Assembly: GCF_003610635.1 (NCBI RefSeq)
Contig: NZ_RAQJ01000001.1
Location: forward strand, 348,474 to 372,473
Reading direction: 5' to 3'
DNA: 24,000 nucleotides
From: Ichthyenterobacterium magnum
Lineage (GTDB): Bacteria; Bacteroidota; Bacteroidia; Flavobacteriales; Flavobacteriaceae
How positions within the stretch are numbered: the stretch's first letter is position 1; each line of letters opens with the position of its first letter. The notes under the pieces were generated by a model. That model worked only from the letters and a program-made list of their open reading frames with translations. It was not told the origin of the DNA and did not search any database. Below are positions 4,619 to 24,000 of the stretch, one piece after another. The position numbers were made by a program, and so were the translations under genes.

Positions 4619-4621
4619 GCA

Positions 4622-6276: not shown

Positions 6277-6343
6277 CCTTTTCAATCTAAAAATTATAAG
6301 CTGAGGCTTAGGTTTAAAAACAGTATATTACAATTTTACTTTG

Positions 6344-6351: not shown

Positions 6352-6373
6352 CTTTTTGAAATTTCAATAATTG

Positions 6374-7252: not shown

Positions 7253-8268
7253 TGATTAATGTTGCTATTAATGGTTTTGGAAGAATTGGACGTAGAGTAT
7301 TTCGTCTTATTCAAGAAAGAAATGACATTCAAGTTGTTGCTATAAACGATTTGGCAGATGCTAAAACCTTGAGTCACTTATTAAAGTACGATAGTATTCA
7401 TGGTGTATCAAATCAATCTATATCTCATTCTGAAAAAACTATAATTGCAAACAATAAAAGTATTCCGCTTCTAAATGAAACACATCCAAAAAATCTAGAT
7501 TGGAATCCTTACAATATTGATTTTGTAATTGAAGCCACAGGTAAATTTAAAGCAGCTTCAGATTTAGAATTTCATATTAAAAATGGAGCCAATCGCGTTA
7601 TTTTGAGTGTTCCTCCATTAAAAGATGATATAAAAACCGTAGTTCTTGGCATAAATGAAGATATTCTAAATGGTGACGAGACTATAATATCTAATGCATC
7701 ATGTACCACAAATAATGCGGCTCCAATGATTTCTGTTATTGATGAATTATGTGGCGTAAGGCAAGCTTATATCACCACAGTACACTCGTACACAACAGAT
7801 CAAAGCTTACATGATCAACCTCATAGAGACCTACGTCGTGCTAGAGCAGCTGGTCAATCAATAGTTCCAACCACAACTGGAGCAGCAAAAGCATTGACAA
7901 AAATTTTTCCTAAACTTTCAAATGTTATTGGCGGTTGTGGCATAAGAGTTCCTGTTGCTAATGGTTCTTTAACCGATATTACATTTAATGTTGACAAAAC
8001 TGTATCTATAAACGATATTAATTCTGCATTTAAAAAAGCTTCAGAAACACATTTAAAAAACATATTAGAATATACAGAAGACCCAATTGTATCTATTGAT
8101 ATTGTTGGTAATACGCACTCTTGCATTTTCGATTCTCAAATGACTTCGGTTATCGGAAATATGATAAAAATTGTAGGTTGGTACGATAATGAGACTGGTT
8201 ATTCATCAAGAATTTTAGATTTAATTTGCAATTTATCGGATAAATCATCACTTTTATCGAATAAATAA
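7252..8268 (+). CDS. gap: Type I glyceraldehyde-3-phosphate dehydrogenase
   Basis: NAD-binding motif INGFGRIGR, active site SNASCTTNNAAP, and WYDNETGYS near the C-terminus. The start overlaps the lipA stop (TAATG at 7250-7254). Confidence 0.9.
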   Translation: MINVAINGFGRIGRRVFRLIQERNDIQVVAINDLADAKTLSHLLKYDSIHGVSNQSISHSEKTIIANNKSIPLLNETHPKNLDWNPYNIDFVIEATGKFKAASDLEFHIKNGANRVILSVPPLKDDIKTVVLGINEDILNGDETIISNASCTTNNAAPMISVIDELCGVRQAYITTVHSYTTDQSLHDQPHRDLRRARAAGQSIVPTTTGAAKALTKIFPKLSNVIGGCGIRVPVANGSLTDITFNVDKTVSINDINSAFKKASETHLKNILEYTEDPIVSIDIVGNTHSCIFDSQMTSVIGNMIKIVGWYDNETGYSSRILDLICNLSDKSSLLSNK

Positions 8269-8269
8269 T

Positions 8270-8277
8270 TATATTTG
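8270..8277 (+). promoter_or_regulatory. Candidate -7 promoter box (TAnnTTTG) for the hybrid kinase
   Basis: TATATTTG lies 2 nt after the gap stop. It covers the ORF-track TTG start (8275), which argues for ATG 8299 as the real start. Confidence 0.4.
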
Positions 8278-8298
8278 TTCAAAATAAGTGGCCTAAAT

Positions 8299-10524: not shown

Positions 10525-11531
10525 AAATTATGTACAAACTTTTTTACTAGTTTAATTAATGCTGTTGAGTCATCAATAGCAGTTTCAATAGGTAGATAAA
10601 ATAATTTTTCTGATACCTTAAAATGAGGCTTTAACCTCATATAATCCTTTTCTGTTGTTATAACAAGTTCCTTTTGCTTTAAGTTTTCTATCTCATGTTG
10701 AGAAAAATTATGATGGTCTTTAAAACTTAAATGTTCAAAACTTAATCCATTCAATTTTAAATACTCTACTAAAGGCTTTGGATTTGCAATTCCTGTTACC
10801 AATGTAAATGATTTGTCTTTCAAGCTCTTTAAATCTATTGCTTTCTTAGCTCCAAAAACCTTTTCTGAATAAGAAATATAACTAAAAAATAAGCGTTGAT
10901 GCGAAGCTAATTTTAAAGCCTTTTTAATAGCTTCTTTTTTATTAGCGTCTAATTGTTCTGGACATTTAGTAACTATAATGACATCTGCTCTTTTAGCTCC
11001 AGATCTTGGCTCTCTCAAATTTCCGGTAGGTAATACAATATCATTTACGTATAAATTATCATATGCCGTTAATAAAATATTAAAACCTGCTTTCACCTTT
11101 CTGTGCTGATAAGCATCATCTAACAAAATAACTTGAGTCTTATCTTTTAAAGCTAATAATTGCTGTATCCCATTTTGCCTATTAGCATCTACACTAACAA
11201 GTACATCATCAAACTTTTTATAAAATTGAAATGGCTCATCGCCAACTGTTGATGCACTTGCATTAACATCTGCAATTACAAAGCCTTCACTTTTTCGTTT
11301 ATAACCTCTACTAAGCGTAGCAATTTTATATTCAGGTTTTAATGCTCTAATAAGGTACTCAATCATAGGTGTTTTTCCAGTACCTCCAACACTTAAATTA
11401 CCAACACAAATAATTGGTAAATCAAATTTAGAACTAGGTTTAACACCTAAATCATAAGCTTTATTTCTTAACCAAGTAACCAAATAATAAATAGGTACAA
11501 CAGGAAATAGAATGTATCTCAAAAATTTCAT
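10521..11531 (-). CDS. lpxK: Tetraacyldisaccharide 4'-kinase (lipid A biosynthesis)
   Basis: 336 aa with an N-terminal membrane anchor and P-loop GNLSVGGTGKTP. The layout is typical of LpxK. Its stop overlaps the kinase stop on the opposite strand (TTAA at 10521-10524). Confidence 0.9.
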   Translation of the reverse strand: MKFLRYILFPVVPIYYLVTWLRNKAYDLGVKPSSKFDLPIICVGNLSVGGTGKTPMIEYLIRALKPEYKIATLSRGYKRKSEGFVIADVNASASTVGDEPFQFYKKFDDVLVSVDANRQNGIQQLLALKDKTQVILLDDAYQHRKVKAGFNILLTAYDNLYVNDIVLPTGNLREPRSGAKRADVIIVTKCPEQLDANKKEAIKKALKLASHQRLFFSYISYSEKVFGAKKAIDLKSLKDKSFTLVTGIANPKPLVEYLKLNGLSFEHLSFKDHHNFSQHEIENLKQKELVITTEKDYMRLKPHFKVSEKLFYLPIETAIDDSTALIKLVKKFVHNF

Positions 11532-11552
11532 CTCAACGAAAGTATAATATTT

Positions 11553-11560
11553 TATCTTTG
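11553..11560 (+). promoter_or_regulatory. Candidate -7 promoter box (TAnnTTTG) for the Nif3 / DUF164 pair
   Basis: Exact TATCTTTG, 17 nt upstream of ATG 11577, within the 45-nt divergent spacer shared with lpxK. Confidence 0.4.
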
Positions 11561-11576
11561 AAACAAATTCATAATT

Positions 11577-12671
11577 ATGATTGTAAAAGATGTTATTAAT
11601 TATTTAGAAGAATTAGCGCCTTTAAATTATGCCGAAGATTTTGATAATGTTGGTTTGCTAGTCGGTGATAAATCCACTAAAATAACAGGTATTCTTGTAA
11701 CTTTAGACACGCTTGAAGCTGTTGTAGATGAAGCTATTAAAAACAATTGCAATCTAATTGTAAGTTTTCACCCAATAATTTTTAAAGGCTTAAAAAAGTT
11801 AAACGGAAAAACATATGTAGAACGTGTTGTTATAAAAGCTATACAAAATAACATAGCAATTTATGCAATGCATACCGCTTTAGATAATGCATTACAAGGT
11901 GTAAATGATATTATATGCAATACGCTAGGCTTAACAAATAAAAAAATACTACTTCCTCAAAAAGGAACTATAAAAAAGCTCACAACTTACGTCCCAAAAA
12001 ATAATGCTCAACAATTAAGAGCGGCCTTATTTAAAAGTGGCGCTGGAGAAATTGGCAATTATGCAAATTGTAGCTTTAATACAGATGGTTTAGGTACATA
12101 TATGGGCAACTCTAACTCAAATCCTACACTTGGCGAAAGAGATAAACTACACACCGAAGAGGAAACCCAAATTTCTGTTACCTTTAAAAAACATTTAGAA
12201 ACTAAGGTTTTAAATACACTTTTTGAAAATCACCCTTATGAAGAAGTCGCTTTTGAAGTTACAACGCTTGATAACTACAATCAAACCATAGGAATGGGAA
12301 TGATTGGAGAACTAGAAAAAGAGGTGAAAGCAGAAGATTTCTTAAATTTTGTGAAAAATAAAATGAAATCTTCTAGTATAAGACATTCAAAACTCATAAA
12401 TAAACCAATTAAAAAAGTTGCTGTACTTGGAGGTTCTGGGAGTTTTGCTATTCAAGCTGCAAAGGCTGCCAATGCTGATGTTTTTATAACTTCAGATTTA
12501 AAATATCATGACTTTTTTATGGCAGAAGACACTATTATTTTAGCAGATATTGGGCATTATGAAAGCGAACAGTACACAAAAACGTTTTTAGCTGATTATC
12601 TCTCAAAAAAAATCACTAATTTTGCAGTCGTTTTATCAATGACAAATACCAATCCAGTAAAGTATTTTTAA
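11577..12671 (+). CDS. Nif3-like dinuclear metal centre protein (long form with an inserted domain)
   Basis: 364 aa with NIF3-family motifs (SFHPIIFKG, AMHTALD, C-terminal IGHYESEQ). The ~110-aa central insertion is typical of the long YqfO-type forms. Confidence 0.85.
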   Translation: MIVKDVINYLEELAPLNYAEDFDNVGLLVGDKSTKITGILVTLDTLEAVVDEAIKNNCNLIVSFHPIIFKGLKKLNGKTYVERVVIKAIQNNIAIYAMHTALDNALQGVNDIICNTLGLTNKKILLPQKGTIKKLTTYVPKNNAQQLRAALFKSGAGEIGNYANCSFNTDGLGTYMGNSNSNPTLGERDKLHTEEETQISVTFKKHLETKVLNTLFENHPYEEVAFEVTTLDNYNQTIGMGMIGELEKEVKAEDFLNFVKNKMKSSSIRHSKLINKPIKKVAVLGGSGSFAIQAAKAANADVFITSDLKYHDFFMAEDTIILADIGHYESEQYTKTFLADYLSKKITNFAVVLSMTNTNPVKYF

Positions 12672-12673
12672 TT

Positions 12674-13453
12674 ATGGCAAAAAAAGTTGAAATTTCTGTT
12701 GAAGATCGTTTAAGAGCATTATACGATTTACAATTAATTGATTCTAGAATCGATGAAATTAGAAACGTAAGAGGAGAACTTCCTTTAGAGGTTCAAGATT
12801 TAGAAGATGAAGTAGAAGGTCTTAATACTAGACTTGAAAAGCTAGGTACTAGCCTTGATTTGGTTGATGAAGACATCAAATCAAAAAAGAATTTAATTGA
12901 AGAAGCTAAAGCTTTAATAAAAAAATATTCTGAACAACAAAAGAACGTTAGAAATAACAGAGAATTTAATTCTTTAACTAAAGAAGTTGAATTTCAAGAA
13001 TTAGAAATTCAATTAGCAGAAAAGCATATTAAAGAATTTAAAGTTCAAATTGAGCAGAAAAAAGAAGTTATTTCTGAAACTAAAGACAGACTTAAAGATC
13101 GCACAACGCATTTAAAACATAAGCGTAGCGAATTAGATGCAATTTTAGCTGAAACTCAAAAAGAAGAAGAAGCTTTAATCAAAAAATCTGATGATTACCA
13201 AAAACAGATTGAAGACAGACTAGTAAAAGCATATTTAAGAATTCGTAATAATGTAAAAAACGGACTTGCAGTAGTAGCTATTGAAAGAGGCGCTTCTGGA
13301 GGATCGTTCTTTACAATTCCGCCACAAGTTCAAGTTGAGATTGCTTCGCGTAAAAAAGTAATTACAGATGAGCATAGTGGACGTATTTTAGTTGATGCCG
13401 TATTAGCTGAAGAACAAAAAGCAAAAATGGAAAAAATGTTTGCTAAACTATAA
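12674..13453 (+). CDS. DUF164/COG1579-family coiled-coil protein (zinc-ribbon family member, Cys-less here)
   Basis: Begins 2 nt after Nif3, which is the classic conserved pairing. It has a long heptad-rich coiled coil. The C-terminal segment ...GGSFFTIPPQ...DEHSGRILV matches the ribbon region of the family but contains no cysteines. Confidence 0.8.
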   Translation: MAKKVEISVEDRLRALYDLQLIDSRIDEIRNVRGELPLEVQDLEDEVEGLNTRLEKLGTSLDLVDEDIKSKKNLIEEAKALIKKYSEQQKNVRNNREFNSLTKEVEFQELEIQLAEKHIKEFKVQIEQKKEVISETKDRLKDRTTHLKHKRSELDAILAETQKEEEALIKKSDDYQKQIEDRLVKAYLRIRNNVKNGLAVVAIERGASGGSFFTIPPQVQVEIASRKKVITDEHSGRILVDAVLAEEQKAKMEKMFAKL

Positions 13454-13475
13454 ACAACCATTTTACAGATATAGT

Positions 13476-13505
13476 AAAGCCTTCTATTTTAGAAGGCTTT
13501 TTTTT
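13476..13505 (+). terminator. Rho-independent terminator
   Basis: 11-bp stem aaagccttcta (13476-13486) / tagaaggcttt (13490-13500) with a 3-nt loop, followed by a T-run. Confidence 0.85.
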
Positions 13506-13583
13506 GCTTCTTATTATAAAAACAAATTAATCTGTTAAGGTTTTACCTTTTAATACGTCTATTTAGTTATAAAATTTTTAGAA

Positions 13584-14240
13584 ATGAAGCATTTACTCCC
13601 AATTATACTAATTACGTTATTATTTAGCTGTCAAAACACAGCACAAGTTAACTCAAAGCAACAGGCTATTATTGATGCCGAGCCTGTAATTGTACCATTA
13701 AAAGACGGAAAAGCTAGAGCGTATTTTGCTAGTGGTTGTTTTTGGTGTGTAGAAGCTATTTATGAAAGCGTAAAAGGTGTAGAAGAATCAATATCTGGAT
13801 ATTCTGGAGGATATTCAAACAATCCAACTTATGAGTCTAGTAATACAGGTAGAACAGGACATGCTGAAGCTGTAGAAATTATTTACGATCCAAATATTGT
13901 AAGCTTTGCTACATTAGTAGACGTCTATTTTGGTTCACAAAATGTAACACAAGTAAATGGTCAAGGTAATGATAGAGGCTCACAATATCGTTCTATTATT
14001 TTTTATCAAAACGACGAACAAAAACAAATTATACTAGAAAAAAAGGAAGCTTTGGCTAAAAAGCTAAATGTAAAAGTTGCTGCCGAAGTTTATCCGTTTC
14101 AAAAATTCTGGGTAGCCGAAGATTACCATCAAGACTACGAGCGTTTACACCCAAATCATCCTTATATTCAAAACGTTTCTGTTCCTAGGCTAAACAGATT
14201 CAAAAAGAAATTCCCAGAGTTAATCAAAAGAAGCCACTAA
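13584..14240 (+). CDS. msrA: Peptide-methionine (S)-S-oxide reductase, exported/lipoprotein form
   Basis: Active-site motif GCFWCVEA plus the conserved GHAEAV and DYHQDY. The N-terminal signal has a lipobox-like LLFSC. Confidence 0.9.
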   Translation: MKHLLPIILITLLFSCQNTAQVNSKQQAIIDAEPVIVPLKDGKARAYFASGCFWCVEAIYESVKGVEESISGYSGGYSNNPTYESSNTGRTGHAEAVEIIYDPNIVSFATLVDVYFGSQNVTQVNGQGNDRGSQYRSIIFYQNDEQKQIILEKKEALAKKLNVKVAAEVYPFQKFWVAEDYHQDYERLHPNHPYIQNVSVPRLNRFKKKFPELIKRSH

Positions 14241-15040
14241 AGTTTAGTTGCTTTTAACTCAAAAAGTAAAGGATAAAGACCATCTTTAGTTTTATACATC
14301 CCAGATTTTGTTTTAATTAAATCTGGTAGTACATCATACGGACTTTCGTCATGTTCATTTAAAAAATCAATTCGTAATCCTGCCTCAGTTAGTGCTGTTA
14401 CTACTTCGCCTAAACCATGATTCCATCCATATTCTTTACTAATCATTTTTGAGTTTTGGTCTGCATAAGTCCCTTCGTACTCTTCATAAATTACTTCATC
14501 TTGATTGTATCCATATTTTAGTTCAGACTTCCCATTGGTATAATCAAACATCCACACAATTGGGTGAAATTCTACCATATAAAATTCGCCTCCTTTTTGT
14601 AATCGTTCAGCAATCATATTAGCCCAAGGTGTTAAATCTGGTAACCAACCAATAACACCATAGCTTGTAAATACAATATCAAATGTTTCTTGAATATATT
14701 TTGAAGTCTCTAATACATTACAACAAAAAAATCCTGCATCAAGTTGCAATTCATTATTTAATGTTTTTGCTATTTCAATAGCTTCATCACTAATATCAAC
14801 ACCAACACACTTAGCTCCTAACCTGCTCCAACTTAACGTATCTTGACCAAAATGACATTGCAAATGCAATAATGATTTTCCAGAAACATCTCTAAGCGCA
14901 TTCAATTCGTAAGGCATTAATGACGTTTTTCCTTTTTTAAAAGCATCTAGATTATAAAATTCACTTGCAGAATGCACTTTTGCTTTCTCGTTCCAAGTTG
15001 CTTTATTAACCTCAAAAAAATCGTCTTCTTTATTCATCAT
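14237..15040 (-). CDS. Class I SAM-dependent methyltransferase
   Basis: SAM-binding fold (LLHLQCHFGQDTLSWSRLGAKCVGVDISDEAI). I prefer ATG 15040 (MMNKEDDFF...) over the ORF-track TTG at 15061. The 3' end overlaps msrA by 4 nt in a convergent arrangement. Confidence 0.8.
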   Translation of the reverse strand: MMNKEDDFFEVNKATWNEKAKVHSASEFYNLDAFKKGKTSLMPYELNALRDVSGKSLLHLQCHFGQDTLSWSRLGAKCVGVDISDEAIEIAKTLNNELQLDAGFFCCNVLETSKYIQETFDIVFTSYGVIGWLPDLTPWANMIAERLQKGGEFYMVEFHPIVWMFDYTNGKSELKYGYNQDEVIYEEYEGTYADQNSKMISKEYGWNHGLGEVVTALTEAGLRIDFLNEHDESPYDVLPDLIKTKSGMYKTKDGLYPLLFELKATKL

Positions 15041-15186
15041 CTTATTATAACTATTAAGCAATATAGTATTTAATATTATTTGGCATAAAATTTGAATTAC
15101 ATTTTGTAATTATAACAAGGTTATTACGACTTAAATCGTATCTATTTTAAACAGCGTTTTTTCCGCATTATGCGTCTATATATATT

Positions 15187-15218
15187 AAAAGTGCTTCAAT
15201 GAATTTTGAAGCACTTTT
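15187..15218 (-). terminator. Rho-independent terminator downstream of the Fe-S protein gene
   Basis: 13-bp stem aaaagtgcttcaa (15187-15199) / ttgaagcactttt (15206-15218). The stem arms themselves are T/A-rich at the ends, so it reads as a hairpin plus U tract on either strand. Confidence 0.7.
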
Positions 15219-15242
15219 TCCTTTTTATCAATAAATTATAGA

Positions 15243-15662
15243 TTACCCTTTAAACTCAGCTTTTATATGTGTACCATCACAATAAGGCTTGTTATTTGAT
15301 GAACCACATCTGCAAAAAGCAGTCGTTTTATTTTTGGTTTCCACATTACCATGTTTATCTGTTACTTTAAGCGTACCATAAACTAGTAAAGGGCCATTTT
15401 CTAAAACCTCAACTTTTGTTTTAAGTGTTTCGGCAGTATTGTCACCTTCGGCATTCATGTAATAGCGTAAAGCTCCAGAAGGACATTGCTTCACTTGATT
15501 AATAATTGTTGTGGTATTAGCAGCATCAATTTTAACCCAAGGTCGTTCTCTAGGCTGAAAAACTTCAGGCAAACCTTTTGCACAAATAGCAGAATGAATA
15601 CACTTTTCAGCTTCCCAAACTACTGTGGTTTCTCCATTACTATATTCTCTTATTTTTCCCAT
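15243..15662 (-). CDS. Fusion of a divergent 4Fe-4S mono-cluster domain with a CDGSH iron-sulfur domain
   Basis: The N-terminal half has CIHSAIC...QCPSGAL (Fer4_19-like pattern). The C-terminal half has CRCGSSNNKPYCDGTH (CDGSH motif). Confidence 0.8.
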   Translation of the reverse strand: MGKIREYSNGETTVVWEAEKCIHSAICAKGLPEVFQPRERPWVKIDAANTTTIINQVKQCPSGALRYYMNAEGDNTAETLKTKVEVLENGPLLVYGTLKVTDKHGNVETKNKTTAFCRCGSSNNKPYCDGTHIKAEFKG

Positions 15663-15749
15663 AACTAGATTATTTCTTTTAAAGATACAAAAAAAAGAAA
15701 AAGACTAATTATCTCTTTTTTTACACTTCATTCCTAACGTATTAATTCC

Positions 15750-15757
15750 TATTTTTG
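15750..15757 (+). promoter_or_regulatory. Candidate -7 promoter box (TAnnTTTG) for the kynurenine cluster
   Basis: TATTTTTG sits at the end of the 92-nt divergent spacer and overlaps the ORF-track TTG start of kynU. Confidence 0.4.
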
Positions 15758-17050
15758 TTGGAAACCGAAAATCAATTCACTTTGTCCAACTATCAATCTG
15801 GTCTTGAATACGCAAAGCAACAAGACGCTTTAGACGAATTATCAAGCTATAGAAACCAATTTCATATTCCAAAAGACAAATATGGAAATGAACTTATTTA
15901 CCTCTGCGGAAACTCGCTTGGATTACAACCAAAAACCACTAAAGCATATATTAATCAAGAACTTGAAGATTGGGCTAATTTAGGTGTAGAAGGTCACACA
16001 GATGCAAAAAACCCATGGTTACCATATCATGAGTTTTTAGCAGAAAGCACAGCAAAATTAGTTGGCGCAAAACCAATTGAAGTCGTTACAATGAACTCGC
16101 TTACTGCAAATTTACATTTTATGATGGCTTCGTTTTACAAGCCTACTAAATCACGTTACAAAATTGTTATTGAAAGTGACGCATTTCCTTCAGATAAATA
16201 TGCTGTAGAATCACAACTACGTCATCATGGTTATGATGATAAAGAAGGTTTAATACTTTGGACACCTCGAAAAGGCGAAGAGTTATTACGTTATGAAGAT
16301 TTAGAAACAATTTTAGAACAACAAGGTGAGCAAATTGCATTAGTAATGATTGGTGGTGTAAACTACTATACAGGACAGTTTTTCGATTTTAAACGTATTA
16401 CAAAACTAGGTCACAAACATGGCTGCATGGTTGGTTTTGATTGTGCCCATGGCGCAGGAAATGTTGATTTAGATTTACATAACTCTGGAGCAGATTTTGC
16501 CGTTTGGTGTACTTACAAATATTTAAACTCTGGCCCAGGAAGTTTATCTGGATGTTTTGTACATGAACGCCATGCTTACGATAAAACCTTAAACCGATTT
16601 ACAGGTTGGTGGAGTCATAATAAAGAAACGCGTTTTAATATGCGTCACGAATTTGATGTATTGCCAGGTGCAGAAGGATGGCAGTTAAGTAATCCGCCTA
16701 TTTTATCTATGGCAGCAATTAAAGCGTCGTTAGATATGTTTAACAAAGTAGGTATTAAAAAACTTAATAAAAAGTCTAAAAAACTTACAGGTTATTTTGA
16801 GTTCTTATTAAAACAATTAGGTGAAGATACTATTAAAATTATTACTCCAGAAAACCCAGATGAACGTGGTTGTCAATTATCTATTCAAGTATTAAACGCA
16901 GACAAATCATTACATAATAAATTAACAGAAGCAGGTGTAATTAGTGATTGGCGAGAGCCAGATGTGATTCGCTGTGCTCCAGTACCTTTATATAATTCGT
17001 TTGAAGATGTATACCAGATGGTTGAAAAAATGAAAAAAATATTAAATTAA
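15755..17050 (+). CDS. kynU: Kynureninase (PLP-dependent)
   Basis: The N-terminal YRNQFHIP...IYLCGNSLGLQPK and the PLP-lysine region WCTYKYLNSGPG are characteristic of kynureninase. No ATG start is available: TTG 15755 is the ORF-track start and in-frame TTG 15782 is the alternative. Confidence 0.9.
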   Translation: MLETENQFTLSNYQSGLEYAKQQDALDELSSYRNQFHIPKDKYGNELIYLCGNSLGLQPKTTKAYINQELEDWANLGVEGHTDAKNPWLPYHEFLAESTAKLVGAKPIEVVTMNSLTANLHFMMASFYKPTKSRYKIVIESDAFPSDKYAVESQLRHHGYDDKEGLILWTPRKGEELLRYEDLETILEQQGEQIALVMIGGVNYYTGQFFDFKRITKLGHKHGCMVGFDCAHGAGNVDLDLHNSGADFAVWCTYKYLNSGPGSLSGCFVHERHAYDKTLNRFTGWWSHNKETRFNMRHEFDVLPGAEGWQLSNPPILSMAAIKASLDMFNKVGIKKLNKKSKKLTGYFEFLLKQLGEDTIKIITPENPDERGCQLSIQVLNADKSLHNKLTEAGVISDWREPDVIRCAPVPLYNSFEDVYQMVEKMKKILN

Positions 17051-17051
17051 C

Positions 17052-17132
17052 ATGTCATTCCGCACTTGATGCGGAATCCACTATAAATTGAAGTTTAATT
17101 AATTAAGATTCCTGCTTTCGCAGGAATGACAT
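17052..17132 (+). repeat. Paired-hairpin intergenic element, copy A (10-bp terminal inverted repeat ATGTCATTCC / GGAATGACAT)
   Basis: Left hairpin attccgca-cttga-tgcggaat (17057-17077). Right hairpin attcctgc-tttc-gcaggaat (17108-17127). The core 17053-17131 is 67/79 identical by hand alignment to 22426-22504. The element fills the kynU-kmo spacer exactly, from 1 nt after the stop to the nt before the ATG. Confidence 0.9.
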
Positions 17133-18533
17133 ATGAAAAACAAACAACAAAACATACTCATTATTGGTGCAGGACTCTGCGGAAGCCTTCTTGCATTACG
17201 ATTAGGACAACGTGGATATAATGTTACCGTTTTTGAAATGCGTCCAGATTTACGAAAAACAGATATTTCTGCAGGACGTTCTATTAACTTAGCGTTTTCG
17301 GATCGTGGCAATAAAGCCATGAAATTAGTTGGCATAGAAGATAAAGTAAAAGCGTTGTGCATCCCAATGAATGGTCGTATGCTTCATGATAAAGAAGGTA
17401 ATACATTCCTTTCAAATTATAGCGGACGCGAGCATGAATACATTAATTCTATTTCTCGTGGAGAGCTTAATGGTCTATTACTAACTGAAGCCGAAAAACA
17501 TGATAATGTTACCATTCATTTTAATAAAAAATGTAAATCGGTTGATTTTGAAAAAACAACAGCTTTATTTCAAGACTACAATACCAAGAAAGAATTTGTA
17601 GAAGATGCAGATGCAATTTTTGCTACAGATGGTGCTGGTTCTGCTATGCGAAAAAGTTACTATTTAGGTAAAAAATTCTTGTTTAGTTTTTCTCAAGATT
17701 ACTTAACACATGGTTATAAAGAATTAAGCATTCTTCCAACAAAAACTGGAGATTATAAAACCTATAAAAACGCCTTGCATATTTGGCCAAGAGGCGCATT
17801 TATGCTTATAGCTTTACCCAATTTAGATGGCAGTTTTACAGTAACACTCTTTTTAGGTTATGATGAAGGCGAATACAATTTCAATAATTTAACAACACCA
17901 GAAATCGTTACAGAGTTCTTCCAAAAAGAATTCCCTGATGCTTTAGAACTCATGCCAAACTTAGTTGAAGACTTTTTTGATAACCCAACTGCACCTTTAG
18001 GAACCGTAAAATGTTCACCATGGCATTATAAAGGTAATACGCTACTTATGGGAGATTCGGCTCATGCTATTGTTCCGTTTTACGGACAAGGTATGAATGC
18101 CTCTTTTGAAGATGTTGTAGAATTTGATGCCGTTTTAGATAAACATGAAGGAAACTGGGAAACCGTTTTTACCGAATACGAAAAAAACAGAAAGAAAGAT
18201 ACTGATGCTATTGCCGATTTAGCGATAGATAATTTTCATGAAATGAAAGACCACGTTGGTCAAGCCATATTTCAAGAAAAGCGAAAAATTGAAATGGCTT
18301 TAGAAAAAGAATTTCCAAAAGACTATTCATCAAAATACAGCCTAGTAACCTTTAATGAACATATTGGTTATCGAGAAGCAATGCTTAAAGGTCGTGCTCA
18401 AGATAAAGCCATATTGAATATGTTATCAGATGGTGTTATTTCTCCAACTGGTAATATGAAAGACATTTTAAACAAAGTAAAACAAGAAACCGAAGCCATT
18501 TTAGAAGACGATAGAGTTGCTGGATTAAAATGA
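17133..18533 (+). CDS. kmo: Kynurenine 3-monooxygenase (FAD-dependent)
   Basis: FAD dinucleotide fold ILIIGAGLCGSLLALRL. KMO-typical segments GRSINLAFSDRG, IPMNGRMLH, LLMGDSAHAIVPFYGQGMN and a C-terminal helical domain are all present. Confidence 0.9.
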   Translation: MKNKQQNILIIGAGLCGSLLALRLGQRGYNVTVFEMRPDLRKTDISAGRSINLAFSDRGNKAMKLVGIEDKVKALCIPMNGRMLHDKEGNTFLSNYSGREHEYINSISRGELNGLLLTEAEKHDNVTIHFNKKCKSVDFEKTTALFQDYNTKKEFVEDADAIFATDGAGSAMRKSYYLGKKFLFSFSQDYLTHGYKELSILPTKTGDYKTYKNALHIWPRGAFMLIALPNLDGSFTVTLFLGYDEGEYNFNNLTTPEIVTEFFQKEFPDALELMPNLVEDFFDNPTAPLGTVKCSPWHYKGNTLLMGDSAHAIVPFYGQGMNASFEDVVEFDAVLDKHEGNWETVFTEYEKNRKKDTDAIADLAIDNFHEMKDHVGQAIFQEKRKIEMALEKEFPKDYSSKYSLVTFNEHIGYREAMLKGRAQDKAILNMLSDGVISPTGNMKDILNKVKQETEAILEDDRVAGLK

Positions 18534-18596
18534 GTTAGCAGTTAGCAGTTAGCAGTTAGCAGTTAGCAGTTAGCAGTTAGCAGTTAGCAGTTAGCA
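18534..18596. repeat. Perfect heptamer tandem repeat (GTTAGCA)x9
   Basis: Counted directly as 9 uninterrupted units. The first unit starts on the nucleotide after the kmo TGA (18531-18533). Confidence 0.97.
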
Positions 18597-18827
18597 AAAT
18601 AAAAAGATATATTGGGAAATGATATAACCTAGTAAAGTTCATGTCCCAGATCAATTCTGAGAATTGAACATTGAAATGTAGAAATAATGAACGAAGGAAT
18701 GGAGATGCAAAACGAAGCTTTAAGCACGAAATTCCGAAAGAGAATGTTCCGAAGGAATTTCCTCATTTCAATTTGACTTTTTGGTTCGTTTTGTGTCAAG
18801 ACAAAATGAACAGATAAAAAAAATATT

Positions 18828-19262
18828 ATGAGTAATAACAACAATGAAATTCCTGCTTCAGCAGGAACAAAGGTAACACCAAGAGGAGCATATCCACATG
18901 TAAAGCAAGTAGGCGATTTTATTTTCGTTTCAGGAACGAGCTCTAGAAGACCCGATAATACAATTGCTGGTGTAGATATTATTGACGAAATGGGAACTAA
19001 ACGTCTAAATGCTGAAGTACAAACTCGTGAAGTTTTAAAGAACATAGAAAGCAACCTAGTTAAAGTTGGAGCCTCTTTAAAAGACGTAGTAGATGTGACT
19101 TCCTTTTTGGTTAATATGAATGATTTTGCAGGTTATAACAAAGCCTATGCTGAATTCTTTGACAAAGAAACCGGACCAACACGCACAACCGTTGCTGTAC
19201 ACCAATTACCACATCCAGATTTAGTGGTTGAGATTAAAGTAATGGCTTATAAGAAAGTATAG
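18828..19262 (+). CDS. RidA/YjgF-family protein; by context probably 2-aminomuconate deaminase
   Basis: 144 aa with RidA-family sequence ([18 protein letters not shown]...DVVDVTSFL...GPTRTTVAV). Known 2-aminomuconate deaminases (AmnD, NbaF) belong to this family. The gene lies between kmo and the ALDH. Confidence 0.8.
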
Positions 19263-19451
19263 ATGACTAAATTATTTGAAAATGAAATTTTACTTTTAAT
19301 TGTCGGTATTACAACTTTAATATTCGCAATATTTGATTACAGGAAAAATTATTCAAAATCTGGTGCTTATGGTAAAGCATCAAAAATTGGCTTAATACTT
19401 CTTGGAATTACTTTCATAATGTTAAGTCTAATTCAGTTTAGTAATAGTTGA
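19263..19451 (+). CDS. Small two-helix membrane protein (hypothetical)
   Basis: 62 aa with two hydrophobic helices (ILLLIVGITTLIFAIF and IGLILLGITFIMLSLI). Its ATG immediately follows the ridA-like TAG (19260-19262). Confidence 0.5.
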   Translation: MTKLFENEILLLIVGITTLIFAIFDYRKNYSKSGAYGKASKIGLILLGITFIMLSLIQFSNS

Positions 19452-19485
19452 AAATAAATTTACGGTTTAGTAGAAATAACAAAAA

Positions 19486-20925
19486 ATGAACATTCAAAAC
19501 TATATTAACGGCAACTTTCATAATCCAATTAATGACAATTGGATAGACAACTTTAATCCATCTAATGGTGAAGTTTATGGACAAATACCTAACTCAACCA
19601 AAGAAGATGTTGAAAATGCTTATATCGCTGCAAAATCTGCTTTCCCTGTTTGGTCACAAACTACATTTGAAGAGCGAAGCAGAATCATACTCAAAATTTC
19701 TGAGTTACTCGAAGCCAACTTGCAACGCTTTGCCGAAGCCGAATCTAAAGACAATGGCAAACCTTTAAATTTAGCAAAAGCAGTAGATATCCCAAGAGCA
19801 GCAAGCAACTTTAGATTTTTCGGAAATGCCATTACGCAATTTGCAAGCGAAAGCCATGAGAGTGTTGGTCAACAAGCTATAAATTACACCTTACGCCAGC
19901 CTATTGGTGTTGTTGGCTGTATTTCTCCTTGGAATCTTCCACTCTATTTATTTAGTTGGAAAATTGCTCCAGCAATTGCCGCAGGAAACTGTGTAGTTGC
20001 AAAACCAAGCGAAGTTACGCCAATGACTGCATATTTATTAGGCGAGATTTGCAACGAAGCTGGGTTACCAAAAGGTGTACTCAATATTGTTCATGGGCTT
20101 GGTGGTTCAACTGGTCAAGCCATTGTAGAACATCCAGATATTAAAGCCATTAGTTTTACTGGAGGCACAGCAACTGGAGCACATATTGCGAGAACAGCTG
20201 CGCCAATGTTTAAAAAATTATCACTAGAACTCGGTGGAAAAAATCCAAATATTATTTTCGCAGATTGTGATTATGAAGATATGTTAGATACTACTGTACG
20301 TTCGTCGTTTGCAAATCAAGGTCAGATTTGCTTATGCGGAAGTCGTATTTTTGTTGAAGCGTCTATCTATGATAAATTTAAAGCTGATTTTGTTAATCGC
20401 GTAAAGGCATTAAAAATTGGTCATCCATCTAAAGCAGACACAAATATTGGTGCTTTAGTATCCAAACCACATTTAGAAAAAGTAAAAGAATACATTCAAA
20501 TTGCTAAAGACGAAAATGGAACTGTTTTATGTGGCGGAAACGATGTTTTAGTTAAAGGCTACGAAAATGGCTACTATCTAGAGCCAACAGTTATTGAAGT
20601 TCCAAATGATGAATGTCGCGTAAATCAAGAAGAAATTTTCGGGCCAGTAGTTACCATCATGCCATTTAATACTGAAGATAGTGTCTTACAAATGGCAAAC
20701 AAAGTAAAGTATGGTTTATCAGCAACACTTTGGACTAATGATTTAAAATGCACCATGCGTATGAGTAATCAATTACAAGCTGGAATTGTTTGGGTGAACA
20801 CTTGGATGATGCGTGATTTAAGAACACCTTTTGGTGGTGTAAAAAATTCTGGCGTTGGCCGTGAAGGTGGTTTTGAAGCGTTACGCTTTTTTACTGAAGC
20901 TAAAAATGTGTGTATTAAATATTAA
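19486..20925 (+). CDS. NAD-dependent aldehyde dehydrogenase, ALDH8-like; probable 2-aminomuconate-6-semialdehyde dehydrogenase
   Basis: Catalytic Glu (LELGGKNP) and Cys (FANQGQICLCGSRIFV) motifs are present. The ICLCxSR context resembles ALDH8A1/AmnC/NbaE-type enzymes, and the gene sits in the pathway cluster. Confidence 0.85.
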   Translation: MNIQNYINGNFHNPINDNWIDNFNPSNGEVYGQIPNSTKEDVENAYIAAKSAFPVWSQTTFEERSRIILKISELLEANLQRFAEAESKDNGKPLNLAKAVDIPRAASNFRFFGNAITQFASESHESVGQQAINYTLRQPIGVVGCISPWNLPLYLFSWKIAPAIAAGNCVVAKPSEVTPMTAYLLGEICNEAGLPKGVLNIVHGLGGSTGQAIVEHPDIKAISFTGGTATGAHIARTAAPMFKKLSLELGGKNPNIIFADCDYEDMLDTTVRSSFANQGQICLCGSRIFVEASIYDKFKADFVNRVKALKIGHPSKADTNIGALVSKPHLEKVKEYIQIAKDENGTVLCGGNDVLVKGYENGYYLEPTVIEVPNDECRVNQEEIFGPVVTIMPFNTEDSVLQMANKVKYGLSATLWTNDLKCTMRMSNQLQAGIVWVNTWMMRDLRTPFGGVKNSGVGREGGFEALRFFTEAKNVCIKY

Positions 20926-21004
20926 GTGGTTAGTGGTTAGTGGTTAGTGGTTAGTGGTTAGTGGTTAGTGGTTAGTGGTTAGTGGTTAGTGGTTAGTGGT
21001 TAGT
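20926..21004. repeat. Perfect heptamer tandem repeat (GTGGTTA)x11 plus GT
   Basis: Counted directly as 11 uninterrupted units. The first unit starts on the nucleotide after the ALDH TAA (20923-20925). Confidence 0.97.
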
Positions 21005-21061
21005 AAAACAATAGAAAAAAATAATTTAAAAAGATTCTGAATCAAGTTTAGGATAACAAAT

Positions 21062-21586
21062 ATGAATTTTAAAATAACTATCTTAACATTATTAATTACT
21101 TTTCATTGTTTTGCTCAAGACAATTGGCAGACATACACAAAGGACAATTACACTATTGATTATCCTTCAGATTGGACTTACAGCAATCAAAAACCTCAAC
21201 CTACGATTCAGTTTGTTTTAAAAGCTAGTCCTAACTCGGCAAAAAATGATCAATTCCAAGAAAATATAAACCTCAATCTAGAATTTCTTAAACAAGATAA
21301 AATTAATCTAGATTCTTATATAAACACAACAATTAAACAGATTTTATCTCAAGTTAATGATGCCCAAATTATAGAAAACAAATTAATAAAATCAAATGAC
21401 TTAGATGCGAAATTGTTTGTTTGGTCTGGTAGTTTTGGAAATGGTATCGTTTTAAAATTTAGACAATTAGTTTTTATAAAAAATAAAACCGCTTACGTAC
21501 TCACATTAACTTGTACAGAGACTGATTATGAAAGCTATATTAATATAGGAAACAAAATTTTTAACAGTTTTAAATTTAAAAATTAA
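21062..21586 (+). CDS. Secreted protein of unknown function (signal peptide)
   Basis: 174 aa with signal peptide MNFKITILTLLITFHCFA|QD. The mature part is a mixed alpha/beta-looking domain with no recognisable catalytic motif. Its stop TAA (21584-21586) abuts the next ATG. Confidence 0.7.
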   Translation: MNFKITILTLLITFHCFAQDNWQTYTKDNYTIDYPSDWTYSNQKPQPTIQFVLKASPNSAKNDQFQENINLNLEFLKQDKINLDSYINTTIKQILSQVNDAQIIENKLIKSNDLDAKLFVWSGSFGNGIVLKFRQLVFIKNKTAYVLTLTCTETDYESYINIGNKIFNSFKFKN

Positions 21587-22369
21587 ATGAACTTAGAGCT
21601 CAATAACAAATACGCTTTAGTCTGTGGAAGCACTGCTGGAATTGGCAAGGCAACAGCTTTAGCCTTAGCAACAGAAGGCGTTCAAGTAACACTTATAGCT
21701 AGAAATGAAGAAAAGCTAAAAGCTACGCTTGCCGAATTACCTCAACAACGTAATCACGATTATATTGTGGCAGATTTTTCAAATCCAATAGAATTGAAAG
21801 CTAAAGTTTCTGAATATATTTCTGAAAATCATGGATTTCACATTTTAGTAAATAATACAGGTGGCCCAAAAGGTGGGCCAGTTTTTTCGGCAGATGTCGA
21901 TGAGTTTGAAAGTGCTTTTACACAACATCTAAAATGCAACCATGTACTAGCACAAGCAGTTGTTCCGTTTATGAAAGACGAAAATTATGGACGTATTGTA
22001 AACGTTATTTCTACATCTGTAAAACAACCACTAGATGGCTTAGGTGTGAGTAACACCATTCGTGGCGCAGTTGCAAATTGGAGCAAAACCTTAGCAAATG
22101 AATTAGGTCAATTTGGAATTACAGTCAATAATGTATTGCCGGGAGCAACAGGAACAGAGCGTTTAAGTGAAATTATCAAAAATAAATCTACAAAAACTGG
22201 TGTTACAATTGATGATGCATCAAATGCTATGAAAAATGCTGTTCCTGCAAAACGTTTTGCAAAACCAGAAGAACTAGCAGATGCTATTACGTTTCTTGCA
22301 AGTGAACGTGCAGCCTATATTAACGGAATTAATCTTCCTGTTGATGGTGGACGCACAAAATCTCTTTAA
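21587..22369 (+). CDS. Atypical short-chain dehydrogenase/reductase-like protein (no YxxxK)
   Basis: Rossmann motif VCGSTAGIGKA and NNTGG are present. Where the catalytic YxxxK should lie, the sequence is GVSNTIRGAV, and there is no YxxxK anywhere in the 260 aa. Confidence 0.85.
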   Translation: MNLELNNKYALVCGSTAGIGKATALALATEGVQVTLIARNEEKLKATLAELPQQRNHDYIVADFSNPIELKAKVSEYISENHGFHILVNNTGGPKGGPVFSADVDEFESAFTQHLKCNHVLAQAVVPFMKDENYGRIVNVISTSVKQPLDGLGVSNTIRGAVANWSKTLANELGQFGITVNNVLPGATGTERLSEIIKNKSTKTGVTIDDASNAMKNAVPAKRFAKPEELADAITFLASERAAYINGINLPVDGGRTKSL

Positions 22370-22405
22370 TATCAAACTTGATTTGATATCTTATAAATTG
22401 AAAAG
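22369..22405 (+). repeat. Half-copy of the intergenic element (CTTGA-loop hairpin plus TATAAATTGAA box)
   Basis: Hairpin atatcaaa-cttga-tttgatat (22369-22389) has the same loop as copies A and B but a different, fully compensated stem. It is followed by tataaattgaa (22392-22402), identical to 17082-17092. Confidence 0.75.
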
Positions 22406-22425
22406 TAATCATTAACTTTAGAACT

Positions 22426-22504
22426 TGTCATTCCGTACTTGATACGGAATCCATTATATATTGAAATAGAATTAAAAAAGATTCCTGTCTTTGCAGGAAT
22501 GACA
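22426..22504 (+). repeat. Paired-hairpin intergenic element, copy B
   Basis: 79 nt, collinear with 17053-17131 (67/79 identical by hand count). Left hairpin attccgta-cttga-tacggaat. Right hairpin attcctg(t)-cttt-(g)caggaat. Terminal inverted repeat TGTCATTCC / GGAATGACA. Confidence 0.9.
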
Positions 22505-22520
22505 AAATAAAAATAGAATC

Positions 22521-23054
22521 ATGAGTAAATTAGTTTCTCCCTTAAATTTTAAAGCTTGGATTGAAGAAAACAGACATCTTTTAAAACCACCTGTTGGAAA
22601 TAAAGTAGTTTGGAAAGATGGTGATTTTATTGTTATGGTTGTTGGTGGACCAAATAGCAGAAAAGATTATCACTATAATGAAACTCCAGAATTTTTCTAT
22701 CAAGTTGAAGGTGATATTGTTTTAAAAGTCATTGATAAAGGCACACCAAAAGACATACACATTAAAGAAGGTGAAATATTTTTATTACCTCCAAAAGTGC
22801 CGCATTCTCCACAACGAGGAGCAAACACTGTTGGATTAGTTATTGAATATCCAAGAGAAAAAGGTGTTCAAGATGCTTTACTTTGGTTCTGTGAAAATTG
22901 TACAACTAAATTGTATGAAGAAGATTTTACTTTAGACAATATTGAAACTGATATGCCTGCGATTTTCGACAAATATTATGGAGATAAAGACAAACGCAGC
23001 TGCCCAAATTGTGGTGAAGTAATGCAACCACCTAAAAAAGTACAAATAGATTAA
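22521..23054 (+). CDS. nbaC: 3-hydroxyanthranilate 3,4-dioxygenase (cupin)
   Basis: 177 aa with N-terminal LKPPVGNK, cupin core DYHYNETPEFFYQVEGD...PPKVPHSPQR, and a C-terminal rubredoxin-like CENC...CPNC site. Confidence 0.92.
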   Translation: MSKLVSPLNFKAWIEENRHLLKPPVGNKVVWKDGDFIVMVVGGPNSRKDYHYNETPEFFYQVEGDIVLKVIDKGTPKDIHIKEGEIFLLPPKVPHSPQRGANTVGLVIEYPREKGVQDALLWFCENCTTKLYEEDFTLDNIETDMPAIFDKYYGDKDKRSCPNCGEVMQPPKKVQID

Positions 23055-23057
23055 TAC

Positions 23058-23163
23058 TGTCATTCTAAACAAAGTGAAAAATCTTTTTTATTACTCTGTT
23101 TAGATTACAACTTTTTAATTAATAATAATTTATGAGATGCTTCGACTGCGCTCAGCATGACAT
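23058..23163 (+). repeat. Diverged member of the GTCAT...ATGAC element family, copy C
   Basis: The left end ctgtcattc matches the left end of A and B. The right arm gatgct-tcgactgcgctc-agcatgacat ends in the same ATGACAT that precedes the ATG in copy A. The interior is AT-decayed, with an extra inverted repeat ctaaaca (23065-71) / tgtttag (23097-23103). Confidence 0.65.
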
Positions 23164-24000
23164 ATGAAAGAAAAACAAAAATTAAGGATAAACGGTCACT
23201 CGCATTTATTACCTTATCCAGAGCAAATTCCTCAATTTATGAAGGAAAAAGAAATTTTCTGGGTAGATGATGAGCGTAAGCACATGTTACAAAAAGGTTG
23301 GAAACGCCCCGTAACCGATTCCAGTTTCTTTTTAGATGAAAAGATTGAATGGATGGAAAAAAACCGTCTGGATCATGCAGTAGTTTTAAATTTATCGCAA
23401 TTATATGGAAACGGTCTTCGCTTAGAAGAAATGAAAAAAGCCTTGCGTTTTCAAAATGATTTTAATGCTAAAGTTCAGCATGATAACCCTGATAAATTTA
23501 CTTGCGGATTTGTAGTTCATCCTGGTTTTATTCATGGTGCTCTATGGGAAATGGAACGTTGTGTAGAAGAACTAGGCATGCACGTTTTGTGCTTACCAAC
23601 ACACTTTATGGATTCTATCGGTCAATGGCGTTGTGTGTTTGACAAAGAAAACGATCCCATTTTTGAGTTAGCAAACAAGTACAAATTAGCCATTGAAATT
23701 CATCCGTACGATGGTGATAAAATGATAAAATTAGAAAACACCAATTGGCGTTTTCATTTAATTTGGATGCTTGCTCAATGTGGTGATGCCTATCATTTTT
23801 ACACTCTAAACGGAATGCAAGAGCGTTTCCCAGATATTAGAACTTGCTTTGCTCACGGTGGACAATTAGCTCAAATGAATTTAGGTCGTCGTATTCAAGG
23901 TTTTGATGGTCGTCCAGATTTATTTGAAGGTAAAACGCACCCTAGAAAAGCAGTTGGTCATCCAAATATTTATTTTGATACACTTGTACACGATACTGAT
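23164..24000 (+). CDS. nbaD: 2-amino-3-carboxymuconate-6-semialdehyde decarboxylase (amidohydrolase_2 family), 3'-truncated by the window edge
   Basis: This gene is not in the ORF track because it has no stop in the window. My translation from ATG 23164 is open for 279 codons: MKEKQKLRINGHSHLLPY...EMERCVEELGMHVLCLPTH...CFAHGGQLAQMNLGRRIQGFDGRPDLF...YFDTLVHDTD. It carries the HxH metal motif and aligns closely with my recollection of human ACMSD (EMERCVKELG, CFAHGGG, RPDL, YTDALVHD). Confidence 0.88.
   Translation, partial: MKEKQKLRINGHSHLLPYPEQIPQFMKEKEIFWVDDERKHMLQKGWKRPVTDSSFFLDEKIEWMEKNRLDHAVVLNLSQLYGNGLRLEEMKKALRFQNDFNAKVQHDNPDKFTCGFVVHPGFIHGALWEMERCVEELGMHVLCLPTHFMDSIGQWRCVFDKENDPIFELANKYKLAIEIHPYDGDKMIKLENTNWRFHLIWMLAQCGDAYHFYTLNGMQERFPDIRTCFAHGGQLAQMNLGRRIQGFDGRPDLFEGKTHPRKAVGHPNIYFDTLVHDTD

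Follow-up and report, generated by a model that had tools for sequence, protein, structure and literature searches.

The kynurenine cluster of Ichthyenterobacterium magnum begins at position 15755 of the 24,000-nt stretch of contig NZ_RAQJ01000001.1 analyzed here (hereafter, the window), and continues to its end. An earlier note on this DNA had reported that every sizeable spacer within the cluster holds a repeat, and had envisaged a single long transcript punctuated by structured RNA modules. The locus raises the question of why repeats should be found between the genes of this particular pathway. The window, which derives from a low-GC (~31%) member of the Flavobacteriaceae and has its closest KMO loci in Olleya, Psychroserpens and Winogradskyella, was compared with 80 orthologous loci and their 10-kb flanks, retrieved using kmo as query and encompassing 663 kb of cluster and 980 kb of flanking sequence. 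The results make it probable that the cluster is an operon with originally tight junctions, repeatedly colonised by small elements that are dispersed in Flavobacteriaceae genomes and phages.

Tight and filled junctions of the kynurenine cluster

Across the 71-81 loci on which junction counts rest, every junction of the cluster presented a bimodal pattern, being either tight or overlapping, or else filled by an element. In 28 of 81 loci the kynU-kmo junction measures at most 10 nt, frequently with an ATGA or ATGAnTAA overlap and in some cases with a gap of 0-3 nt, and in most of the remaining loci it contains one or two small elements that fill exactly the interval between TAA and ATG. Both the junction that is filled and the family of the filling element differ from genome to genome, with copies present at different junctions in different genomes. 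The comparison with relatives lacking the repeats, which the earlier note had called for, thus reveals empty junctions that are tight or overlapping. It also indicates that, although every sizeable spacer does hold a repeat, this statement is largely circular, since the spacers exist because repeats make them and, without repeats, there are almost no spacers. As part of the overall explanation favored here, the spacers are likely to represent insertions into ancestrally tight or overlapping junctions.

The inserted sequences comprise at least six families, here termed F1 to F6, and a set of heptamer microsatellites, instead of the two repeat classes recognized previously:

F1: two-hairpin element with ends TGTCATTCC...GGAATGACA; elements A and B of the window
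F2: GTCACCTCGAGCGCAGTCGAGAGG-type doublets; right arm of element C
F3: single hairpin GAGATCCTGAAACAAGTTCAGGATGACA
F4: CCTTCCCnnnGGGAAGG
F5: GTCATTACGAGG...CGCAATGACA
F6: the "230-nt region" of the earlier note

TGTC...GACA ends are common to families F1, F2, F3, F5 and F6, and single-hairpin forms are present in relatives such as L069 and L070. Orthologous copies of F3 retain their stems and vary in their loops, and hairpins often end 2-20 nt before the next start codon. Analysis of the window recovered all the repeats listed in the earlier note at their reported places, and detected two additional hairpins (at 18850 and 21033) that it had missed. The complete set of elements in the window is as follows:

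17051-17132: element A (F1), 82 nt, constituting the whole kynU-kmo spacer (fold z = -4.8)
18533-18596, + strand: (AGTTAGC)x9.1, 100% perfect, from the last base of the kmo stop codon (tandem-repeat scan)
18597-18645, + strand: A-rich linker from the array to F6, of the same type as in relatives and in the trp locus L219
18646-18811, + strand: F6, ~170 nt, with six helices, a U-run and the 3' hairpin GGTTCGTTTTGT-GTCAAG-ACAAAATGAAC (185.5 bits with a covariance model)
18850-18867, + strand: hairpin TTCCTGC-TTCA-GCAGGAA, resembling a repetitive extragenic palindrome (REP), in frame within ridA
20925-21004, + strand: (AGTGGTT)x11.4, 100% perfect, from the last base of the stop codon of the aldehyde dehydrogenase (ALDH) gene (tandem-repeat scan)
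21033-21058, + strand: degenerate single-hairpin element of family F3 (GATTCTGAATCAAGTTTAGGATAACA), just 5' of the start of the PsbP-like gene
22372-22420: truncated element (the "half copy") with hairpin ATCAAACTTGATTTGAT, identified by folding and sequence comparison
22425-22506: element B, a second F1 copy
23055-23163: element C, with ends TGTCATTC / CAGCATGACA and a right arm of the F2 type (GAGATGCTTCGACTGCGCTCAGCATGACA)

Element A contains two inverted hairpins, ATTCCGCA..TGCGGAAT and ATTCCTGC..GCAGGAAT, and its ends are TGTCATTCC and GGAATGACA. It fills its spacer exactly, as had been noted, although its length is 82 nt rather than 81 nt. Element B is 83-85% identical to element A and shares its layout of two inverted hairpins separated by ~28 AT-rich nt, with a GCA/TGC to GTA/TAC difference between the two copies that constitutes a compensatory change. 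The complete elements A, B and C are 82-109 nt long and non-coding, and carry terminal inverted repeats. Close counterparts of these sequences were identified at orthologous positions: the half copy and the sdr-haao junction of Wocania (L070) share 94% identity, and the right arm of element C presents 93-97% identity to the haao-acmsd junctions of L058, L047 and L017. Likewise, positions 21017-21058, which include the F3 hairpin preceding the PsbP-like gene, are 95% identical to positions 13571-13612 of the Psychroserpens locus L033, where they come after the heptamer array of that locus.

The hairpin detected within ridA falls within the initial 15 codons of the gene (18828-18875) and is translated, contributing the residues ..EIPASAG.. 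close to the N-terminus of RidA. This insert of ~10 codons is present in 27 of 79 relatives, and the proteins of the remainder begin with MSENxVTPRG. In the metagenome locus L123, a gene encoding an ABC ATPase and located 3' of an F6 copy starts with the very hairpin and peptide found in ridA.

Short-read (Logan) contigs of the source genome end inside (AGTTAGC)n (L001, ~18563) and inside element B (L230). The latter contig, which carries the gene for a short-chain dehydrogenase/reductase (SDR) and corresponds to window positions ~20975-22454, is only 1480 nt long. Such ends may stem from the tandem or palindromic sequence itself rather than from its copy number.

Profile annotation upheld the earlier gene calls, with all cluster genes of the window located on the + strand:

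15755-17050, + strand: kynU, kynureninase, first gene of the cluster (TIGR01814, 457 bits)
17133-18533, + strand: kmo, kynurenine 3-monooxygenase-like FAD monooxygenase (family match)
18828-19262, + strand: ridA, RidA family (PF01042, TIGR00004)
19263-19451, + strand: accessory gene, a 62-aa hydrophobic open reading frame (ORF) without family match
19486-20925, + strand: ALDH gene, 2-aminomuconate/hydroxymuconate semialdehyde dehydrogenase type (PF00171; TIGR03216, 563 bits, below the model cutoff)
21062-21586, + strand: gene for a PsbP-like secreted protein (family annotation)
21587-22369, + strand: SDR gene (family annotation)
22521-23054, + strand: haao, 3-hydroxyanthranilate 3,4-dioxygenase (NF009763, 268 bits)
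23164-24000, + strand: ACMSD-like amidohydrolase gene, cut by the window end (PF04909)

The ridA product is probably a 2-aminomuconate deaminase, a specific role suggested by its context. The order of the core genes is unchanged across the orthologous loci and the ACMSD-like gene is the conserved last gene of the cluster in relatives; the site held by the 62-aa ORF is variable among them, and the PsbP-like gene is missing from many. In 52 genomes a gene encoding a 211-aa membrane-anchored protein is located 3' of ridA, where the window has the 62-aa ORF instead. Small ORFs (~105 aa) encoding GIY-YIG nuclease-like proteins, always co-oriented with the cluster, were observed after aldh in seven genomes and after ridA in three (L018 13363-13683 and nine other loci; L016 12108-12422). 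Other co-oriented accessory inserts include a 117-aa ORF after kynU and up to 5 kb of sequence between ridA and aldh.

A scan for hairpins followed by U-runs detected no terminator-like site in the + strand cluster spacers and recovered those at 3419, 13476 and 15187, in agreement with the earlier note. The Bacteroidetes -7 consensus is TAnnTTTG, and no instance of this box was found in any internal spacer of the cluster. Given this result, and a sigma-70 style scan that performed no better than on shuffled sequence, we discarded the notion that the elements carry promoters. The only TAnnTTTG box in the fer-kynU spacer (15663-15757) lies at 15750-15757 and overlaps the annotated TTG start codon of kynU. 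Since all core and inserted accessory genes are co-oriented across loci, and internal terminators and -7 boxes are lacking, the cluster looks like one transcription unit, as initially proposed, and its description as one transcript punctuated by structured modules would fit these predictions.

Enrichment in the operon and dispersal of the element families

Within the window, all cluster spacers of at least 80 nt hold repeats (5/5), compared to none of the housekeeping spacers of at least 50 nt (0/8; one-sided Fisher exact ~8e-4, by hand calculation). The earlier observation that the first 15 kb are free of repeats was corroborated, with no element family and no heptamer array detected in window positions 1-15700 nor in another 9.2 kb from the source genome. 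The same pattern is apparent in the comparative dataset. Representatives of families F1-F6 returned 176 copies in the 663 kb of cluster sequence versus 7 in the 980 kb of flanking sequence, most of which touch a cluster end, and 129 of 273 co-directional cluster spacers of at least 50 nt contain an element, against 6 of 276 in the flanks. For F1 in particular, two copies were identified in the ~980 kb of flanks, and none in 25 kb of non-cluster sequence from the source genome.

Analyses of repeat pairs within each locus, which are independent of the chosen families, identified 62 cluster-cluster, 14 cluster-flank and 6 flank-flank pairs, even though the flanks contain approximately twice as many spacers. 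Perfect hairpins with a TGTC/GACA foot were likewise found at 1.12 per kb of cluster spacers and 0.04 per kb of flank spacers, whereas terminator-like hairpins are biased in the opposite direction (0.65 per kb in the cluster and 1.15 per kb in the flanks). Neighboring control junctions, comprising nif3-znr (tight in 69/69 loci) and the sizeable znr-msrA and fer-kynU spacers, contained no element. The enrichment of these elements in the kynurenine operon is hence real, and it recurs in ~80 genomes.

The earlier note had also remarked on the concentration of these repeats in this pathway. The concentration stands, as described above, but the families are not specific to this pathway, since they are dispersed in unrelated operons and on viral contigs. 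IMG/VR viral contigs yielded the F1 hairpin pattern in 27 stretches, whose GC contents range from 34% to 57% and none of which carries kynurenine genes. MITEs, or miniature inverted-repeat transposable elements, have been reported to be common to Flavobacterium and its phages (PMC11602168), and the presence of F1 on viral contigs fits this published sharing. The F6 3' module returned no match in viral contigs and is present in over 120 metagenome stretches at the least; among the matches listed, five correspond to kynurenine clusters and three to trp biosynthesis operons. Full-length copies of F6 were found between znuA, znuC and znuB, between genes for sulfite reductase and uroporphyrin methylase, spermidine synthase and AdoMet decarboxylase, NAD kinase and DUF6089, FtsX and cysteine synthase, and MazG and an SDR, among others. 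Furthermore, elements from different genera are 90-93% identical, for 40-50% identity at the fourfold degenerate sites of the adjacent genes, a contrast that speaks for mobility or constraint.

The trp biosynthesis operon (trpG-D-C-F-B-A) of uncultured relatives is punctuated in a similar way (L136 1-5816, L219 2800-5960 and L139 600-2932). Three F6 copies are present in L136, and L219 contains (GTTAGTA)x7 after a presumed trpE and (AGTTAGC)x4 after trpG; behind each array, an A-rich linker leads to F6 or a hairpin element.

Regarding the genes that could mobilise these elements, general annotation revealed no RAYT gene among the window proteins, although no search was aimed specifically at RAYT. 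A transposase or other ORF tied to F6 was considered and rejected, as the 14 copies that appeared to lie inside an ORF involve spurious or over-extended ORFs.

Heptamer arrays and the structured element F6

In the ~1.65 Mb of KMO loci, 12 of 13 perfect arrays with at least three copies and a period of at least 5 nt have a period of 7. All 12 belong to clusters and begin no more than ~2 nt from a stop codon, with 9 of the 12 following kmo. The units are diverse: the kmo-ridA junction presents different heptamers in nine relatives, the AGTGGTT unit of the window recurs in L059 behind haao, and L033 has another unit behind aldh. In several genera, these units include GTTAGCA, GTTAGTG, GTTAGCT, GTTAGGA, GTTAGGT, GTTAGTA, TTAGTAT, TTAGTGA and GTAAGCA, outlining a GTTAG core followed by two variable bases that places a UAG every 7 nt on the sense strand. 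Each unit generates a stop codon in all three frames. Copy number is also variable, with one unit present in 1, 11.6 and 15.6 copies in three Winogradskyella and GTTAGCA in two versus nine copies in relatives, a spread characteristic of slippage. Behind the arrays lies an A-rich linker, succeeded by F6 or a hairpin element. The arrays adjoin stop codons since the DNA inserted into a formerly tight junction has them at its 5' edge. Heptamers have been described as the commonest class of long simple-sequence repeats (LSSR) among prokaryotes, with arrays that provide three-frame stops reported in several genomes, including those of Gramella and Aequorivita (PMC4679880).

The region from the A-rich linker to the base preceding ridA (18597-18827) folds with z = -3.5. 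The F6 structure was assessed on an alignment of 19 copies from different operons, using shuffled and slid controls. This alignment supports the six helices: standard pairs account for 99% of its cells, and in 21 of 47 pairs both partners have changed (122 cells). None of the shuffles attains such figures, and slid controls are only 25-51% paired. The joining regions are GA-rich and conserved. In addition, the CTTGAN sequence located just 5' of the U-run covaries with the N'TCAAG loop of the 3' hairpin (window positions 18768-18811) in all F6 copies, the base following CTTGA and the first loop base forming 83 Watson-Crick and 5 G-U combinations out of 99. This covariation suggests a pseudoknot or an alternative pairing, which would amount to a switch. 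A full pseudoknot at the 3' end is sterically doubtful, with zero linker nucleotides, and alternative pairing appears equally possible.

Searches with a covariance model (R1) identified 27 F6 copies in ~1.64 Mb of KMO loci, all of them inside clusters and in the sense orientation, and distributed over three junctions. In metagenome stretches with full-length copies, the upstream gene is co-oriented with F6 in 21 of 23 cases and the downstream gene in 21 of 24. This strong sense bias speaks for an RNA-level effect. Where copies occupy the same junction, they share a mean identity of 74%, and up to 94%, while fourfold sites of kmo are 41% identical, for a random expectation of 31%, and F6 similarity tracks host divergence only weakly (r ~0.2-0.3). 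F6 hence appears to be both constrained and exchanged between genomes. The zero copies in 980 kb of flanks translate, as a rough inference, into ~10 or fewer copies per genome, in which case the kynurenine cluster would hold a few percent of them in ~0.25% of the genome.

No Rfam match for F6 or the other elements was obtained in the window (E <= 1), in positions 18520-18840 (E <= 10) or in 27 other loci at gathering thresholds, where the exception was Flavo-1, with hits elsewhere, and a literature search by repeat sequence strings found no paper. F6 thus looks like a structured RNA candidate with good support, missing from Rfam and apparently undescribed. It is rather unlikely, though worth considering, that F6 constitutes a new class of functional operon-internal structured RNAs of marine Flavobacteriaceae, deployed in metabolic operons such as kyn, trp, znu, cys, spe and others. 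Under such a model, F6 could act as a processing or self-cleavage site, as an antiterminator or attenuator, or as a ribonucleoprotein scaffold. By analogy with HutP, the (GUUAGNN)n arrays located 5' of F6 could provide a platform for an oligomeric protein reading a UAG every 7 nt. Beyond this spacing, there is no terminator after the array, nor was a Pfam match to HutP obtained among the window proteins.

Weighing of alternatives and comparison with known systems

The explanation that we consider probable, recurrent colonisation of an operon with tight junctions, involves three kinds of sequence. The first kind consists of palindromes similar to REPs, to their REPIN doublets or to MITEs, with TGTC(A)...(T)GACA ends, and encompasses elements A, B and C, the half copy, the hairpin preceding the PsbP-like gene and the hairpin within ridA. 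The second is the single, sense-oriented, multi-helix F6 copy of ~170 nt, and the third the perfect GTTAG+NN heptamer microsatellites that mark the 5' edge of insertions. The observed inserts leave the ORFs on either side intact and contribute no terminator-like hairpin or -7 box. Only insertions sparing both neighboring ORFs, and adding neither a terminator nor a promoter, would have survived. The operon would still be transcribed as a single unit, now with stable hairpins and one complex fold between its cistrons, and it would act as a recurrent and tolerant landing site for elements that are not bound to the pathway. Bacteroidetes start translation without Shine-Dalgarno pairing, and because of this the masking of the next start region by these structures could matter. 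Other possible effects on the mRNA include the protection of upstream segments from 3' exonucleases and the creation of processing sites. The best candidate for an element acting as RNA would be F6, given its orientation bias and conservation.

Several observations weigh against this explanation. Comparison of filled and empty kynU-kmo junctions revealed no consistent target-site duplication. No transposase ORF adjoins any copy in the 2.7 Mb of fetched loci, which also yielded no autonomous parent element, and mobility is hence deduced from the distribution of the elements. The background for the enrichment is made up of the flanks, 25 kb of the source genome and a metagenome sample that was ascertained through the elements themselves and whose members are phylogenetically non-independent. 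Pure tolerance also leaves unexplained why hundreds of co-directional spacers in the same loci stay free of elements, and the conservation of F6 in situ, well above that of neutral sites, suggests function rather than junk.

These last points bear on a possible, if doubtful, alternative, in which the repeats would be selected, REP-like RNA modules that tune the stability, processing or translation of operon segments and, hence, the stoichiometry of the pathway enzymes. Such a role is consistent with the invariant sense orientation of F6 in the clusters (27/27) and its predominant co-orientation with upstream genes in metagenomes (21/23), with its conservation far above neutral sites, with the preservation of F3 stems, with the proximity of hairpins to the next start codon, and with spacers devoid of competing terminators or promoters. 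Yet the filled junction and the family filling it vary and many genomes are tight throughout, as exemplified by kynU-kmo, which implies that no particular module is required for the pathway, and the same families are present in unrelated operons and on viral contigs. A role of the heptamer arrays as phase-variation switches, with slippage altering their length and thus downstream expression, is quite improbable. The arrays are perfect, long arrays exist only at period 7 and their copy number differs among close relatives, but they are flanked by a stop codon and a long non-coding element, being neither in an ORF nor between promoter boxes, with no -7 box nearby, and a 7-nt change has no obvious frame or spacing target.

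The interpretation of the palindromes as recombination sites, of the attC or Xer/dif-like type, mediating the insertion or swapping of genes in the cluster, appears very improbable. Co-oriented accessory ORFs are indeed inserted at junctions (GIY-YIG, the 117-aa ORF, up to 5 kb), and the 3' hairpin of F6 has a dif-like 11-6-11 layout. The order of the core genes is nonetheless invariant, the cluster encodes no integrase or recombinase, the TGTCA...TGACA ends do not fit the attC core RYYYAAC / GTTRRRY, and the arms covary instead of maintaining a fixed sequence, which points to structure and not to a protein-recognition sequence. Integron attC sites and Xer/dif sites were both rejected on these grounds. 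It is also hardly plausible that F6 and the heptamer array constitute a tryptophan-related regulatory RNA shared by kynurenine degradation and trp biosynthesis operons. HutP recognises UAG triplets with a 7-nt period, as spaced in the arrays, the tryptophan-activated TRAP reads UAG/GAG arrays, and the five kynurenine clusters and three trp operons (L136, L139, L219) among the metagenome matches listed often contain several copies. However, this association is probably inflated, as the same conserved loci were sampled repeatedly from related organisms, and the position of F6 within operons varies and is never that of a leader. Moreover, Pfam annotation of its neighbors places full-length F6 in diverse operons (znu, sulfite reductase, spermidine synthase and others), and the tryptophan-specific reading of F6 was rejected on this basis.

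Recurrent colonisation of tight junctions thus remains the explanation that we favor. It brings together palindromes and heptamer microsatellites of kinds already known, a conserved hotspot at the level of an operon, and F6, a structured element that is apparently undescribed. Cultivable relatives, in their dozens, have empty or filled junctions and provide a natural series on palindromic repeats in polycistronic mRNA, of value in a phylum whose RNA biology has been little studied. For annotation, the results imply that several "intergenic regions" and one N-terminal extension of ridA are repeat insertions, and that repeats break short-read assemblies of the cluster. The kynurenine operon, like a few further ones including trp and znu, would be a preferred or tolerant site for such insertions.

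Among known systems, the palindromic elements resemble the REP, BIME and REPIN sequences of Enterobacteria and Pseudomonas, such as those of malE-malF, in being short extragenic palindromes, present singly or as inverted doublets (as in F1 elements A and B), in their location between co-directional genes of an operon, in the conservation of stems through compensatory changes and in their co-transcription with the operon, which is here predicted from sequence. The foot of REP sequences is GTAG, as opposed to TGTCA in these elements, which also differ in their low density outside the operon in the DNA sampled, and in being common to several genera and viral contigs, where vertical inheritance has been described for REPINs. 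REPINs owe their mobility to RAYT transposases (PMC3116915). The elements also share with MITEs, such as the Correia/NEMIS elements of Neisseria and those of Flavobacterium and its phages (PMC11602168), the presence of terminal inverted repeats, a length below 200 nt, the lack of an ORF, presence/absence polymorphism at orthologous sites and their occurrence on viral contigs. They differ from them in that no consistent target-site duplication and no parent insertion sequence were identified, and in their strong clustering in one operon. With regard to neighboring genes, Correia elements can be co-transcribed and alter their expression.

For the heptamer arrays, the nearest kinds are heptanucleotide LSSR (PMC4679880) and, beside them, the STRR repeats of cyanobacteria. 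Like heptanucleotide LSSR, the arrays are perfect, intergenic and variable among relatives, with stops in three frames, and break short-read assemblies. TAACTGA arrays are known in Beggiatoaceae, Cyanobacteria and some Bacteroidetes (PMC4679880), and the reverse complement of the GTTAGCA unit, TAACTGC, matches TAACTGA at six of seven positions. The units are nevertheless GTTAGCA and GTGGTTA in the sense direction, leaving that match on the opposite strand with respect to the downstream gene, and the window arrays do not display the forward unit toward the downstream start that defines the TAACTGA family. In addition, they are anchored at the upstream stop codon, unlike TAACTGA arrays, which lie just before a start codon, and they regularly precede an A-rich linker and a structured element.

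The computationally identified Flavo-1 motif (RF01705; PMC2864571, and PMC9723704 for F. psychrophilum) is, like F6, a structured repeat widespread in the Flavobacteriaceae, but it has no match in the window and has been reported in both orientations with respect to transcripts, while F6 copies are nearly all in the sense orientation. An instance of Flavo-1 (51.5 bits) was detected in the sdr-haao junction of the kynurenine cluster of Psychroserpens (L033 14442-14541), which makes it a further dispersed structured repeat present in this operon. We know of no HutP or TRAP homolog in this system, and the perfection of the heptamer arrays is more indicative of slippage than of a fixed binding site of the HutP or TRAP type. 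The eps-associated antiterminator (EAR) of Bacillus provides a further parallel for F6, as a structured RNA of ~120-170 nt located in sense between the genes of an operon. F6 shows no sequence or Rfam similarity to EAR, nor to the HutP and TRAP targets, and is set apart from all three by being a multi-copy element, variable in position and present in many host operons.

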